A stretch of 64,000 bases of DNA from Escherichia phage UP19: the sequence record OX638288. One strand, 5' to 3'. The stretch's first letter is position 1. Each line of letters opens with the position of its first letter. Under the pieces are notes generated by a model. That model saw nothing but the letters and a program-made list of their open reading frames with translations, ran no database searches and was not told the DNA's origin. The position numbers and the translations under genes are program-made. Positions 24,593-30,784 of this stretch are shown piece after piece.

Positions 24593-24604
24593 TATTTATA
24601 AATA
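24593..24604. promoter_or_regulatory. palindromic bidirectional late promoter TATTTATAAATA (TATAAATA on both strands) for divergent genes 51 and 26
   Basis: Perfect 12-bp palindrome containing the T4 late-promoter octamer in both orientations; 21 nt from gene 51 ATG and 19 nt from gene 26 ATG. Confidence 0.7.
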
Positions 24605-26452: not shown

Positions 26453-26480
26453 GGCCCTTCCGAAAGGTTGGGCCTTTTTT
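26453..26480. terminator. bidirectional terminator hairpin (GGCCC..GGGCC) + T6 between converging uvsY-side and uvsW-side transcripts
   Basis: GC stem-loop followed by TTTTTT on the plus strand and A/T-rich on the minus strand. Confidence 0.65.
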
Positions 26481-26483
26481 GTT

Positions 26484-26711
26484 TTAGAACTCTTCTTGCT
26501 CTTCGTCATCCATAGATTCCAATTCAGCTCGTTTACCTGCTAAGGCATCACGAACACTGATATCGTCCGAATCTCGAAGTTCAGCTTCTTTACTACGAGT
26601 TTTGTAATACTTTTCCAATTCCTTCAAACCGTCCATGGTTTGACAAGAACTAATTTTAGACATGAAGCTCTCGATAGAGGCTTCATAGATAACTTCTTTA
26701 AAGGACTTCAT
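26484..26711 (-). CDS. small helical protein, UvsW.1-like by position
   Basis: 75 aa, acidic C-terminus; sits where UvsW.1 follows uvsW in T4 but separated from uvsW by the HNH gene. Confidence 0.45.
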   Translation of the reverse strand: MKSFKEVIYEASIESFMSKISSCQTMDGLKELEKYYKTRSKEAELRDSDDISVRDALAGKRAELESMDDEEQEEF

Positions 26712-27403
26712 AAATCCACCTGTTTCATTAAATTTCTGATTTTGTGACGAGAAAGACCCGTGGCTTCGGAAGCTTGTTTCATCGAGCCATATTCAACACC
26801 ATTTATAGTAACCTTTTTAGCTGCTGGGTTTTTAGATGGGTCTTTATATCTTTCTTTAGCTTTATCTGAAATTTTCTTAGAAGCTTCTGGCGTATGATTT
26901 TTACCATACATGCCGTTGCCAGCACCGGAATTTCTTTCAGATATAGCTTGACATTGTTCTTGCATGTATTTATAAGGATTCGCTTTTTTAGTTGCGGATA
27001 TTTTATCGCCCCATAAAATAGGCCTACCTTTAAATAAATTGCTCATGTATTCTTTATGGGCTTCAGTGTGGTGCTTACCATAAAATGGATTTCCTTCGCC
27101 AGTCTGAAGAATTGCCAATTGTCTACGTTCCCACCCGTATGATTTACTAAATTGTCTTTTATGGGTCCTGGAACTCATACCCATAGAAATAACAGCTTTT
27201 ATGAGACCGTAGTTATTTGGATAAATTTTAGCCAGTAATTTATGAGCTATAAAATGTTCTTCTGGGGTAAGGCGTACTCTATTTTCCCGAGTATCGGGCC
27301 CGCCCATACAAGTCGGGATTATATGATGGGACTCGGTGTACCCGAGAGGTTTAGAAGCCTTTCGGCTTCTAATTAAATTGTCATAAATCTTTTGATAATT
27401 CAA
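26708..27403 (-). CDS. HNH homing endonuclease with NUMOD3-like DNA-binding repeats
   Basis: 231 aa; HNH core ..ESHHIIPTCMGGPDTRENRVRLTPEEHFIAHKL..; repeated GxxxYGKxHTxEx(K)KIS motifs; ATGA-coupled on both sides. Confidence 0.85.
   Translation of the reverse strand: MNYQKIYDNLIRSRKASKPLGYTESHHIIPTCMGGPDTRENRVRLTPEEHFIAHKLLAKIYPNNYGLIKAVISMGMSSRTHKRQFSKSYGWERRQLAILQTGEGNPFYGKHHTEAHKEYMSNLFKGRPILWGDKISATKKANPYKYMQEQCQAISERNSGAGNGMYGKNHTPEASKKISDKAKERYKDPSKNPAAKKVTINGVEYGSMKQASEATGLSRHKIRNLMKQVDL
26708..27403 (-). mobile_element. free-standing HNH homing endonuclease gene inserted between uvsW and uvsW.1-like ORF
   Basis: Same ORF as above; intergenic insertion typical of T4-type homing endonuclease genes. 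Confidence 0.7.
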
Positions 27404-28896
27404 ATTTGGACCTCTTTCATTACGTAATTAAAACGTTCATCTGCGTAACGTTGAATACGTTCAAGACCATGTTTAAGAGCGTAGTTTAAATGAACATATT
27501 TCTTTTTAGCCATAGATGATTTAGGTTTCACACCCATATCATCAATAATATCAAATACCTGGGCTGTTGATTTGGAAGCATGCTTACGTAGTACACGACC
27601 TATGGTCTGAAGTACAATAATTTTTGATTTTACCGGATGAGCAAATACAACATGGTGAAGGTTCTTAACGGAAATACCAGTAGAGAACACACCGTAACTT
27701 GCCACAACAATAATACCCTTACCATTTTCCGCCATTACTTTCAGAGCATTACGCGTTTCGGTATTAACTTCACCTGATACGTAATAAACTTCTTTATGTT
27801 GCTCTTTAACCATTTCAAAAAGAGTTTTACCGTGTTCGATGTTTTTAAACATCAGGAATACATTCTCTTCTTTCTTAGCGAGTTTAACAGCTAAATTAGC
27901 AACCCATTTATTACGACGAGTAGCCTTAGTAATGACCTTTATTTCTGATTGATAATCTTTACCTTTCATCTTAACAGTGAATTCATCCGGATAACGAAGG
28001 AAAATACTGTTGATTTTAAGGTCTGTAACCTGTCCTTCTTCCATTAACTGCGAAGTGGATACCGGCTTAAACACATCACCAAACAAACCCATATATTGCA
28101 TTAAATTAGCTTTACCGTCTTTTAAAGAACCGGACAAACCGAATTTAAACATACAGTTGGTTAGGCCTTCGATGATGGTAGAAATTGATTTACCTGTCGC
28201 CAAATGGCATTCGTCATTCATAAACATACCAAACTGAGCAAACCATTCTTTAGGTTGTTTAATAGCCGTTTGATAAGTTGAAACATAAATCATTGCATCG
28301 GAATCACGTGCAGTACCTGAACGAATACCAAGCATAGCAGCTTTAGGGAACAAACGATAATCGATGAAGTCATTAATCATCTGGTCAACAAGGGCAGTAG
28401 TAGGAACTAAAATAAGGATTTTACCTTCATAGTTCTCAACATAATATCGACTCAGGAGCGCCTGAATCAATGATTTACCTGCGGATGTAGGTAAATTCAG
28501 AATTGCGCGACGTTTTGTCAGACCGTTGTATACGGCTTCATTCTGATACCAATGTGGCTCAATCTTGGTAGAACCCGAATAAATCTCTTGTGAGGCTACC
28601 CATGAGTCAAAATCTTCGCGAGAAATATCTTCCTGTTCAAGAATACGTGGGTCAATCCACAGAGAGTATTCAAACTGGTCAGCGAATTTTTTAATTTGTG
28701 GGACTAGACCATACGGAAGTTTACGGTTATAATCTAGAAGACGAATTCTCCCGTCCCATTGCCCGTACCGGTATTTAGGGTTAAATTTATATCCATCAGC
28801 TTCAAAGCTGAAATAGTCTCTGAGTTCGTAGAAGGTGGATTCATCACACTCAATACGAACATGACTAAAATTATCAAAATGTACTTGAATTTGCAT
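27400..28896 (-). CDS. uvsW: UvsW ATP-dependent DNA/RNA helicase
   Basis: 498 aa; N-terminus ..VHFDNFSHVRIECDESTFYELRDYFSFEADGYKFNP..; Walker A LPTSAGKS; DECH box. Confidence 0.95.
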   Translation of the reverse strand: MQIQVHFDNFSHVRIECDESTFYELRDYFSFEADGYKFNPKYRYGQWDGRIRLLDYNRKLPYGLVPQIKKFADQFEYSLWIDPRILEQEDISREDFDSWVASQEIYSGSTKIEPHWYQNEAVYNGLTKRRAILNLPTSAGKSLIQALLSRYYVENYEGKILILVPTTALVDQMINDFIDYRLFPKAAMLGIRSGTARDSDAMIYVSTYQTAIKQPKEWFAQFGMFMNDECHLATGKSISTIIEGLTNCMFKFGLSGSLKDGKANLMQYMGLFGDVFKPVSTSQLMEEGQVTDLKINSIFLRYPDEFTVKMKGKDYQSEIKVITKATRRNKWVANLAVKLAKKEENVFLMFKNIEHGKTLFEMVKEQHKEVYYVSGEVNTETRNALKVMAENGKGIIVVASYGVFSTGISVKNLHHVVFAHPVKSKIIVLQTIGRVLRKHASKSTAQVFDIIDDMGVKPKSSMAKKKYVHLNYALKHGLERIQRYADERFNYVMKEVQI

Positions 28897-28910
28897 GTCT
28901 AATTCTCAGT

Positions 28911-28932
28911 TATAAATATAACTATATTTATA
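28911..28932. promoter_or_regulatory. pair of face-to-face divergent late promoters: TATAAATA (plus, 28911-28918, for inh/hoc) and TATTTATA (minus-strand TATAAATA, 28925-28932, for uvsW)
   Basis: Both octamers exact; arranged so that the two 5' leaders would overlap. Confidence 0.6.
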
Positions 28933-28951
28933 CACCAACAAGAGACTAATT

Positions 28952-29623
28952 ATGGATACTCAATATATTGAAGAGCTTCGTGCACTCGAAGATAAAAAAG
29001 AAGCTAAAGCTAAGTTAATCGAATACGGCGAACAGTTCGGTTTAAAACTTAAGAAAACCCGTTCGTTTGATAATTTGGTTATCGATATCTCTGAAGGCCT
29101 TAAAGCCTTGGCTGATGAACCACATCCAGAAACCGAAGGTTTGTCTATTTCTGATTTGATTGATGCTGCCGACGAACTAACAGGCGCTAAAGAATTTGTT
29201 GATGGTGCTGAACCTGCCAAAGAAGAGGCTACCCTATTATTTGATGCCCCTGAAGCGGTAGTTGAAGTTATTGAGGTAGCCGAACTCCCTAAGGTAGAGA
29301 TTATTGAAGAAGATGTTCCTTTTGTCGAAGAGAAATTCAAAGAGGCTGTAGCCGAGGTTATTGAATCTGAAAAACCTGTATTCTCTTTGCCTGAAAACTT
29401 TAGTCCTAATCTTTTGCTTATTGGTAAAAACCCTGGTTACTGTACTGTTCCTTGGTGGATTTATCAATGGATTTCTGAAACCCCTGATTGGAAAGAACGT
29501 CCTAAAGATTTCCAACACCCTTCTGCCCACCAAACATTATTCAGTCTGATTTATTACATCAATCGTAATGGCTCAGTATTAGTACGTGAAACACGTAATT
29601 CATCTTTTGTAACTTTAAAATAA
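28952..29623 (+). CDS. inh: Inh-like protein (inhibitor of prohead protease) by position
   Basis: 223 aa; located immediately upstream of hoc as in T4; acidic Glu/Ala-rich middle. Confidence 0.5.
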   Translation: MDTQYIEELRALEDKKEAKAKLIEYGEQFGLKLKKTRSFDNLVIDISEGLKALADEPHPETEGLSISDLIDAADELTGAKEFVDGAEPAKEEATLLFDAPEAVVEVIEVAELPKVEIIEEDVPFVEEKFKEAVAEVIESEKPVFSLPENFSPNLLLIGKNPGYCTVPWWIYQWISETPDWKERPKDFQHPSAHQTLFSLIYYINRNGSVLVRETRNSSFVTLK

Positions 29624-29632
29624 GGGTAAACT

Positions 29633-30760
29633 ATGGCTTTTACTGTAAGTATAGCCGGCACAGCGTCTATTAAAATAGGCGAAAGTGCTAACTACACTGC
29701 TACCGCAACAGGTGCAGCTGTAGAAGGAACCATTACATATGTATGGTCTATTGATGGTGCTTCTAATCCAGAAGCAACCAATGTTTTGAAATATACAGGT
29801 GCTTCACCTGCAGGTAAGAAAGTTTTAAAAGTAGTAGCAACTTCTACTCCAGCTGAAGGCGAACCTGAGGTAGCTGAAGATACTTTTGAAGTTACCGTAG
29901 CTAATAAGACCATGTCTATTTCTTTGGCTTTGGACCCTATTTCTGTTTCTAAAGAAGTTGGCCAATCTCAAGTTGTTACTGCTAACGTGACGGGTGCACC
30001 TGCAGGTGCAACAATCGCTTATGTTTGGAAACGTAACACTAGCGTAATATCAGGTCAAACCGGTAAAACTATTACCATAACCGAAGCGGCGGAAGCAAAT
30101 TACACTTTGAACTGTGAAGTTACTGTTACCGCCCCTGAATATGACCCGGCTACCGCTACCAAAGGTGTTGCGGTAACTTTTGTTAAGAAAACTATGTCAG
30201 GTGTTTCTGTTACTTTAACGCCAACCTCTATTAATGTTCCTGAAGGAACTCCGGCTTCTTTTAAAGCTACCGTAGTCGGCGCACCTGCTGGTGCTACTTT
30301 TGCTTATTCTTGGAAGAAAGACGGTTCATCAGTCGCAGGTGCCACAGATACTTTAGTGGTTGATACTAGTGCTGAAGGTTCGCAGGTTATTGAAGTTTCT
30401 GTTGTTGTTTCGGCTACCAACTATAATCCTGTGACCGTCACAAAATCCGGTAATGTAACAATTACGGCTAAAGTCGCTCCTGAACCGGAAGGTGAACTAC
30501 CTTATGTACACCCACTTCCTGTTCGTAATTCAGCGTATATTTGGGCCGGCTGGTGGGTTATGGATGAAATCCAGAAAATGACCCTTGAAGGTAAAGACTG
30601 GAAAACTGATGACCCTGATAGCGATTATTATCTCCATCGCTATACTCTTCAAAAAATGGTTGCCGATTATCCAGAGGTTGATGTACAAGAATCACGTAAT
30701 GGAAGAATTATCCATCGCACCGCTTTAGAAGCTGGTATTATATACGATTACGTTTATTAA
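29633..30760 (+). CDS. hoc: Hoc outer capsid decoration protein (Ig-like domains)
   Basis: 375 aa (T4 Hoc is 376 aa); three repeated Ig-like modules (..YVWSIDG.. / ..YVWKRNT.. / ..YSWKKDG..); C-terminal ..ELPYVHPLP..WWVMDEIQKMT.. Confidence 0.9.
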   Translation: MAFTVSIAGTASIKIGESANYTATATGAAVEGTITYVWSIDGASNPEATNVLKYTGASPAGKKVLKVVATSTPAEGEPEVAEDTFEVTVANKTMSISLALDPISVSKEVGQSQVVTANVTGAPAGATIAYVWKRNTSVISGQTGKTITITEAAEANYTLNCEVTVTAPEYDPATATKGVAVTFVKKTMSGVSVTLTPTSINVPEGTPASFKATVVGAPAGATFAYSWKKDGSSVAGATDTLVVDTSAEGSQVIEVSVVVSATNYNPVTVTKSGNVTITAKVAPEPEGELPYVHPLPVRNSAYIWAGWWVMDEIQKMTLEGKDWKTDDPDSDYYLHRYTLQKMVADYPEVDVQESRNGRIIHRTALEAGIIYDYVY

Positions 30761-30764
30761 TTAA

Positions 30765-30784
30765 GGGCCGCAAGGCCCATTTTG
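30765..30784 (+). terminator. rho-independent terminator after hoc (GGGCC-GCAA-GGCCC + ATTTTG)
   Basis: 5-bp GC stem with GNRA-like loop and T-run. Confidence 0.65.

Follow-up and report, generated by a model that had tools for sequence, protein, structure and literature searches.

The uvsW-inh intergenic region

In the stretch of 64,000 nucleotides of sequence record OX638288 (Escherichia phage UP19) that was analysed here, called the window in the following, the divergently oriented genes uvsW (minus strand, ATG at 28896) and inh (plus strand, ATG at 28952) are separated by a gap of 55 bp. Read from uvsW to inh, this gap has the sequence gtctaattctcagt-TATAAATA-taacta-TATTTATA-caccaacaagagactaatt. 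Its centre is a 22-bp AT-rich near-palindrome of the form TATAAATA-N6-TATTTATA, in which two late-promoter octamers of opposite orientation are held 6 bp apart by the spacer TAACTA (28919-28924). The features of the gap and of the genes on either side are the following; the mRNA starts are predicted ones.

27400..28896, minus strand: uvsW, 498 aa; Pfam UvsW_N (1e-43) and helicase domains; PHROG DNA helicase
28904..28908, minus strand: Shine-Dalgarno-like UGAGA, 7 nt before the uvsW ATG
28911..28918, plus strand: late-promoter octamer TATAAATA for inh-hoc; perfect octamer, predicted -13..-6
28919, minus strand: predicted uvsW mRNA start; A on the minus strand (T on the plus strand), with T at -1 and T at +2
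28919..28924, no strand: shared spacer TAACTA (T-R-N-N-T-R), equal to -5..+1 of both promoters
28924, plus strand: predicted inh-hoc mRNA start; A, with T at -1 and T at +2, 6 nt past the octamer
28925..28932, minus strand: late-promoter octamer TATAAATA for uvsW and, after it, a homing-endonuclease gene and uvsW.1; reads TATTTATA on the plus strand, predicted -13..-6
28940..28945, plus strand: Shine-Dalgarno-like AAGAGA, 6 nt before the inh ATG
28952..29623, plus strand: inh, 223 aa, inhibitor of prohead protease; PHROG 'minor head protein inhibitor of protease' (5e-91)
29633..30760, plus strand: hoc-like gene for head decoration, the second in the rightward unit; PHROG (1e-111)
30765..30778, plus strand: terminator-like GC hairpin followed by a T-rich tail, from the terminator scan

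The hairpin at 30765..30778 is likely the end of the inh-hoc unit. The closest relative of the window is Escherichia phage CLB_P2 (Dhakavirus, Tevenvirinae), with 97.6% identity over 1.1 kb (28400-29500); homologues of gp55 are reported for all sequenced T4-related genomes in the T4 late-transcription review.

The two octamers that the original prediction had placed at 28911-28918 (plus strand) and 28925-28932 (minus strand) are borne out by the sequence, and each does lie nearer to the gene that it does not serve, the plus-strand octamer at 14 nt from the ATG of uvsW and the minus-strand octamer at 19 nt from that of inh. TATAAATA occurs 16 times in the 64-kb window, against 7.8 +/- 2.5 expected, and a count of at least 16 was reached in 0 of 100 shuffles. 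Among 300 first-order Markov simulations of the window, a single one had a leftward octamer 0-20 bp past a rightward one, and a gap of exactly 6 bp never occurred; as the pair is conserved across genera (see below), a chance origin is in any case irrelevant. Upstream of inh, the inh-directed octamer is the sole promoter-like element within the 55-bp gap: no sigma-70-like promoter was detected there (the regional count of such promoters being below the shuffle expectation), and no Rfam family matched the gap, the best hit, an S15 leader at E = 0.38, scoring well under the gathering threshold.

Over the window as a whole, 13 of the 16 TATAAATA octamers are on the minus strand, clustered between 34.8 and 49.6 kb. 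By its position and orientation, this cluster is consistent with a long leftward-transcribed block of late structural genes.

Predicted start sites and leaders

The T4 late-transcription review describes the commonest variant of the octamer as carrying 'A(-13) in place of T'; the octamer thus spans -13 to -6. Combined with the sequence of the gene 23 promoter P23 used in the cryo-EM study, which reads TATAAATActcctG, this numbering puts the start at the sixth base past the octamer. In the gp55 open complex seen by cryo-EM, the DNA is unwound from -12 to +2, with A-12, A-9, and A-8 flipped out. At the same offset from the 14 other octamers of the window, +1 is a purine in 13 cases (A in 11), -1 is T in 10, and +2 is T in 8. 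The pair between uvsW and inh shows T-A-T at -1/+1/+2 on both strands, and so matches this initiator signature twice.

With the octamers at -13 to -6, the starts fall at 28924 on the plus strand and at 28919 on the minus strand, 5 bp apart, and the two RNAs therefore diverge without any common sequence: the rightward RNA covers position 28924 and those above it, the leftward RNA position 28919 and those below it, and the 4 bp at 28920-28923 are in neither. The original prediction had expected the late transcripts to carry complementary 5' ends; the predicted RNAs share no nucleotide, and the pairing of antisense leaders that was to follow is ruled out by the geometry of octamers at -13 to -6. 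Shifting both starts by 1 nt still yields no overlap, for which a spacer of at least 11 bp is required. The expectation that each transcript starts inside the promoter of the other does stand, as each predicted start is position -5 of the opposite promoter, between the octamer and the start of the latter. Each octamer is thus transcribed as +2 to +9 of the opposite mRNA, so that both mRNAs are predicted to begin with AUAUUUAUA. The promoters, which had been described as face to face, do face each other in their octamers; by their starts, however, they are divergent and overlapping, not convergent.

The predicted leaders measure 28 nt for inh (28924-28951) and 23 nt for uvsW (28919 down to 28897), values within the range of 13-43 nt found where other late promoters of the window are closely followed by the start of a gene. 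Neither folds better than its shuffles (z = +0.9 for inh, +0.5 for uvsW), and both appear unstructured; an RNA reading through the palindrome would form an A-U hairpin of only -4 kcal/mol. Motifs of the GAG or AGGA type occupy the Shine-Dalgarno position of uvsW in the relatives.

The T4 and RB69 counterparts

In the reference T4 sequence, the orthologous element reads AATAAATA-TATCTA-TATTTATA in the orientation of the window. The inh and segE/uvsW late promoters of T4 have the same position, the same genes, the same arrangement of octamers, and the same 6-bp spacing as the pair in the window; they differ in the insertion of the homing-endonuclease gene segE, which separates the pair from uvsW, and in that the inh-directed octamer is the A(-13) variant, whereas both octamers are perfect in the window. 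A further AATAAATA is found within the 3' end of segE. For T4, a late promoter upstream of inh has been described, as has a promoter located in non-coding sequence ahead of segE, and UvsW is expressed from a late promoter. The window pair is thus orthologous to late promoters that have been catalogued for T4, but belongs to a different T-even genus.

The time-resolved transcriptome and proteome of T4 classifies inh, segE, and uvsW all as late-RNA/late-protein, with the proteins of all three appearing at one common time point. The original prediction had named the use of only one of the two octamers in vivo as the outcome that would contradict it; at the resolution of genes, this is not what is seen in T4, both directions being late. 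In RB69, Nolan et al. (2006) predicted the uvsW-directed late promoter (Pl:114694) and did not predict the variant inh-directed one. Literature searches returned no data at the resolution of transcription start sites for the T4 orthologues, no discussion of the interleaved geometry of the T4 pair was found in the literature searched, and the T4 records NC_000866 and AF158101 carry no annotated promoter features.

Conservation among T-even relatives

Loci around uvsW were taken from IMG/VR and from annotated phage genomes; 52 of them have divergent, adjacent inh and uvsW genes, corresponding to 36 distinct intergenic regions. In 28 of the 36, at UvsW identities of 64-100%, TATAAATA (or AATAAATA) is followed after exactly 6 bp by TATTTAT(A/T). 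Annotated carriers of this N6 arrangement are T4 (Tequatrovirus), RB69 (Mosigvirus), UTI-K4 (Jiaodavirus), X20 (Winklervirus), EnC15 (Karamvirus), and MY02 (Marfavirus), and at least seven genera keep the interleaving. In the N6 relatives without an inserted endonuclease gene, the gap between inh and uvsW is estimated at 52-83 bp.

The uvsW-directed octamer is perfect in every N6 relative, and the inh-directed position is occupied by TATAAATA or AATAAATA; this invariance among the 28 is partly circular, as the set was selected by that very pattern. Evidence free of this circularity is provided by the frequency of 28 in 36, the fixed length of the spacer, its T-R..T-R ends, and the match to the initiator. 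The spacer is T-R-N-N-T-R in all 28 N6 regions, which yields a pyrimidine at -1 and a purine at +1 on both strands: the inh start position is a purine in 28/28, and at the uvsW start the plus strand carries T in 28/28 with a purine as the adjoining base (28/28), that is, Y(-1)A(+1) on the minus strand. T-R at both ends of the spacer is what two Y(-1)/R(+1) initiators on opposite strands require. Throughout the 28 distinct sequences the spacer length is invariant, the two central bases vary freely, and indels are confined to the flanks, where substitutions occur as well.

The symmetry of the palindrome is broken in the T4 and RB69 groups, where the inh-directed octamer is AATAAATA. This is the commonest natural variant of the late promoter (9 of 50 T4 sites). 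Where symmetry is lost, it is thus lost to a functional variant, which argues that promoter function, and not symmetry, is conserved.

More distant relatives show opposed octamers in other layouts, with a spacer of 11 bp in Krischvirus, a spacer of 12 bp in locus L026, and an overlapping TATTTATAAATA in locus L040; in the Acinetobacter Lazarusvirus, the octamers are truly back-to-back in a longer gap of 81 bp. Only the uvsW-directed octamer is recognisable, at up to one mismatch, in Aeromonas, RB16-like, and Slopekvirus-like phages. In the 64 kb of the window, and in the approximately 2.4-7.5 kb covered per related locus, inh/uvsW is the only place where the N6 arrangement occurs; a scan of IMG/VR for TATAAATA-N6-TATTTATA is unselective, with giant-virus and other AT-rich contigs among the matches listed. 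Taken together, these patterns indicate that a pair of late promoters has been selected for within very little space, with N6 interleaving as the solution fixed in Tevenvirinae.

Bases just outside the octamers (window positions 28908-28910 and 28933-28935) are conserved in the 28 N6 loci as well. On the outer side of the uvsW-directed octamer the sequence is GTG, the two nearest positions being G in 25/28 and T in 24/28; on the outer side of the inh-directed octamer it is AC, at 26/28 each. The GTG and AC flanks are asymmetric to one another, no such preference is seen at the other late promoters of the window, and promoter rules leave them unexplained.

A probable bidirectional late promoter

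We consider it probable that the element consists of two canonical T4-type late promoters, dependent on gp55, gp33, and gp45, which are interleaved to form a compact bidirectional late promoter. The plus-strand promoter would start the inh-hoc mRNA at A28924 and the minus-strand promoter the uvsW mRNA at A28919 (minus strand), the two RNAs diverging without overlap. As the spacer makes up -5 to +1 of both promoters, neither its length nor its T-R...T-R ends can change, whereas its centre is free. The simplest rationale would be the saving of space, since both promoters and both leaders, ribosome-binding sites included, would fit into about 50-60 bp, against the 81 bp taken by the back-to-back layout of the Acinetobacter phage.

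Given the extent of unwinding in the gp55 open complex, the plus-strand promoter would melt 28912-28925 and the minus-strand promoter 28918-28931; the two bubbles would have 8 bp in common, and would use opposite strands as template. With these 8 bp shared, two open complexes could not coexist on one DNA and initiation would have to alternate; by this analysis, the two open complexes should be mutually exclusive. The promoter interference of the original prediction thus remains plausible in the form of such mutual exclusion, but not as collision, since the polymerases move apart. In the bidirectional promoters of E. coli, basal transcription is too low for polymerases to compete, and interference arises only upon strong activation of one direction.

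The gp45 clamp activates only a promoter whose non-transcribed strand bears a nick or primer end. Activation is thus specific for orientation, and the two directions would be served by clamps of opposite orientation. It could be argued from this that the sliding clamp reads the interleaved pair as a switch of direction, the orientation of the arriving clamp setting the choice between uvsW and inh-hoc, a proposal that we regard as quite unlikely. The orientation of the clamp would follow from the strand that is discontinuous when a fork or a recombination intermediate passes, and the strictly kept 6-bp spacing would enforce the mutual exclusion. If this were true, the output of the origin-silencing helicase relative to the capsid proteins would be coupled to the mode and direction of replication.

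That only one of the octamers works, the other being a by-product of the palindrome or a piece of AT-rich, easily melted downstream DNA, is very doubtful. Such a reading could draw on the single, uvsW-directed promoter of the RB69 prediction (Nolan et al., 2006), on the several distant relatives in which the uvsW-directed octamer stands alone, and on the caution, given in the T4 late-transcription review, that not all of the 50 listed T4 late promoters have been proven in vivo. Beyond the gap, however, the DNA upstream of each gene is the antisense of its neighbour's coding sequence; with only this upstream, and with no other candidate in the 55 bp, each gene needs a promoter of its own within the gap. 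The expression of T4, late in both directions at the level of RNA and of protein and with similar timing, runs against a single working octamer, as do the T-A-T initiator at the correct offset from both octamers and the functional AATAAATA variant that results where symmetry is lost. Nor would a role in melting account for the second octamer: unwinding reaches only +2, so that just one base of the partner octamer is melted.

The near-palindrome might instead be mainly a site of protein binding or cleavage, for a dimeric regulator or as the target of SegE, and owe its conservation to this. The cleavage site of SegE is reported to lie between hoc.1(inh) and uvsW in phages that are without segE, an endonuclease gene immediately follows the pair in T4 and in locus L028, and the GTG and AC flanks are conserved for reasons that promoter rules do not give. 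Homing endonucleases, however, make use of sites that are conserved already and are not the reason for that conservation; the palindrome varies freely at its centre and has lost its symmetry in the T4 and RB69 groups, and two late promoters explain every conserved position inside the element. We therefore hold conservation for protein binding or cleavage to be highly improbable, and we know of no candidate regulator for the near-palindrome. Protein binding may form an additional layer on top of the promoters, although the conservation inside the element can be explained without it.

Hardly credible, finally, are promoters that are convergent in effect, with complementary 5' ends and regulation by antisense leaders or colliding polymerases: the octamers are indeed directed towards one another, and each start does fall within the opposite promoter, but the starts at 28924 (plus) and 28919 (minus) have no nucleotide in common and send the polymerases apart, the Y(-1)R(+1) pairs at the ends of the spacer fix them there in 28/28 relatives, and of the relatives only two have spacers, of 11 or 12 bp, that are long enough for an overlap, which would amount to 1-2 nt.

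Comparison with known promoter arrangements

On both strands, the pair between uvsW and inh has TATAAATA about one helical turn upstream of the predicted start with no -35 element, an AT-rich stretch from -5 to +2, and a purine start 6 nt past the box; the leaders in front of the two genes are short (28 and 23 nt), and the T4 orthologues of these genes are late. At the level of sequence, the pair thus has every feature by which T4 late promoters are recognised.

With the bidirectional promoters of Warman/Grainger, the pair shares a short, pseudo-symmetric, AT-rich element between divergent genes that accepts polymerase in either orientation and gives rise to two mRNAs, and in which one binding event excludes, or in the window would exclude, the other. 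Those promoters depend on sigma-70 and have a shared or overlapping -10 hexamer; the distance between their starts is mostly 18 bp, in other cases 10 or 23 bp, and by definition 7-25 bp. The pair in the window, in contrast, has two separate gp55 octamers that lie outside the starts, no -35 element, and orientation-specific activation by a sliding clamp. With 5 bp from one predicted start to the other (28919 and 28924), it falls short of the 7-25 bp range, and in place of a single shared, near-symmetric -10 element it has two octamers with 6 bp between them, each beyond the start of the other. In the way it works, the pair resembles a bidirectional promoter, but the definition of the Warman/Grainger class does not cover it.

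Convergent promoter pairs have nothing but facing recognition elements in common with the pair in the window, whose starts have already passed each other, leaving neither overlap nor collision; the complementary, overlapping transcripts of convergent promoters are not formed by the predicted RNAs.

A second compact arrangement of two divergent late promoters within one short AT-rich element is TATTTATAAATA, which is found between genes 26 and 51 of T4 (locus L003, 6951-6962) and in the window at 24593-24604. It differs from the pair at inh/uvsW in that the octamers overlap and lie between predicted starts about 23 bp apart, so that neither leader contains the octamer of the other. In the window, TATTTATAAATA brings together two late octamers on opposite strands, back-to-back and overlapping by 4 bp, and the divergent ORFs on either side have predicted leaders of 13 and 15 nt.

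These comparisons reveal no new kind of system; what is mildly notable is the strict 6-bp interleaving across genera, a tidy natural case of two promoters for a sigma-like factor that share one melting region. The main value of the analysis lies in correction and in a clean annotation of the promoters, predicted starts, and leaders of uvsW and inh-hoc, which removes a tempting but mistaken antisense model. The element could also provide a compact system in which to study competition between polymerases and the rule of orientation that governs transcription activated by the clamp.

Endonuclease genes around uvsW

In the window, a gene for an HNH-type homing endonuclease of 231 aa is located between uvsW and uvsW.1 (26708-27403, minus strand), identified by PHROG 'homing endonuclease' (8e-54), a Pfam NUMOD3 motif, and a ...SHHIIP... 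motif. Its TTG start overlaps the stop codon of uvsW (ATTTGA), and its stop codon overlaps the ATG of uvsW.1 (ATGA). CLB_P2 lacks this gene, and has uvsW.1 directly after uvsW. The insertion is distinct from segE, which in T4 is located on the other side of uvsW. A perfect TATAAATA at 26967-26974 (minus strand) lies within the endonuclease gene, about 250 nt upstream of uvsW.1 (26484-26711), and could be an embedded late promoter that restores the expression of the displaced uvsW.1; embedded late promoters have been described for segE, segG, and others in T4.

Just past uvsW.1, at about 26453-26480, is a GC-rich hairpin (GGCCCAACCTTTCGGAAGGGCC on the minus strand). It is preceded on the minus strand by a run of A6, equivalent to T6 after it on the plus strand; it fits the conserved bidirectional terminator downstream of uvsW.1 (Nolan et al., 2006), and is absent from the output of the simple terminator scan.

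In T4 (locus L003, 2509-2557), segE starts 13 nt past the octamer pair and has taken over the promoter that serves uvsW in phages lacking segE. Locus L028 has a similar insertion of about 740 bp, with an endonuclease gene directly after the pair and a perfect TATAAATA near the 3' end of the insertion. The record MZ375356 (locus L001), a mutant clone named 'T4_583L', has deletions and odd annotation in this region and is unsuitable as a T4 reference: compared to the reference T4 sequence, its segE measures 378 instead of 618 nt and its hoc 393 instead of 1131 nt, and its uvsW is extended upstream.
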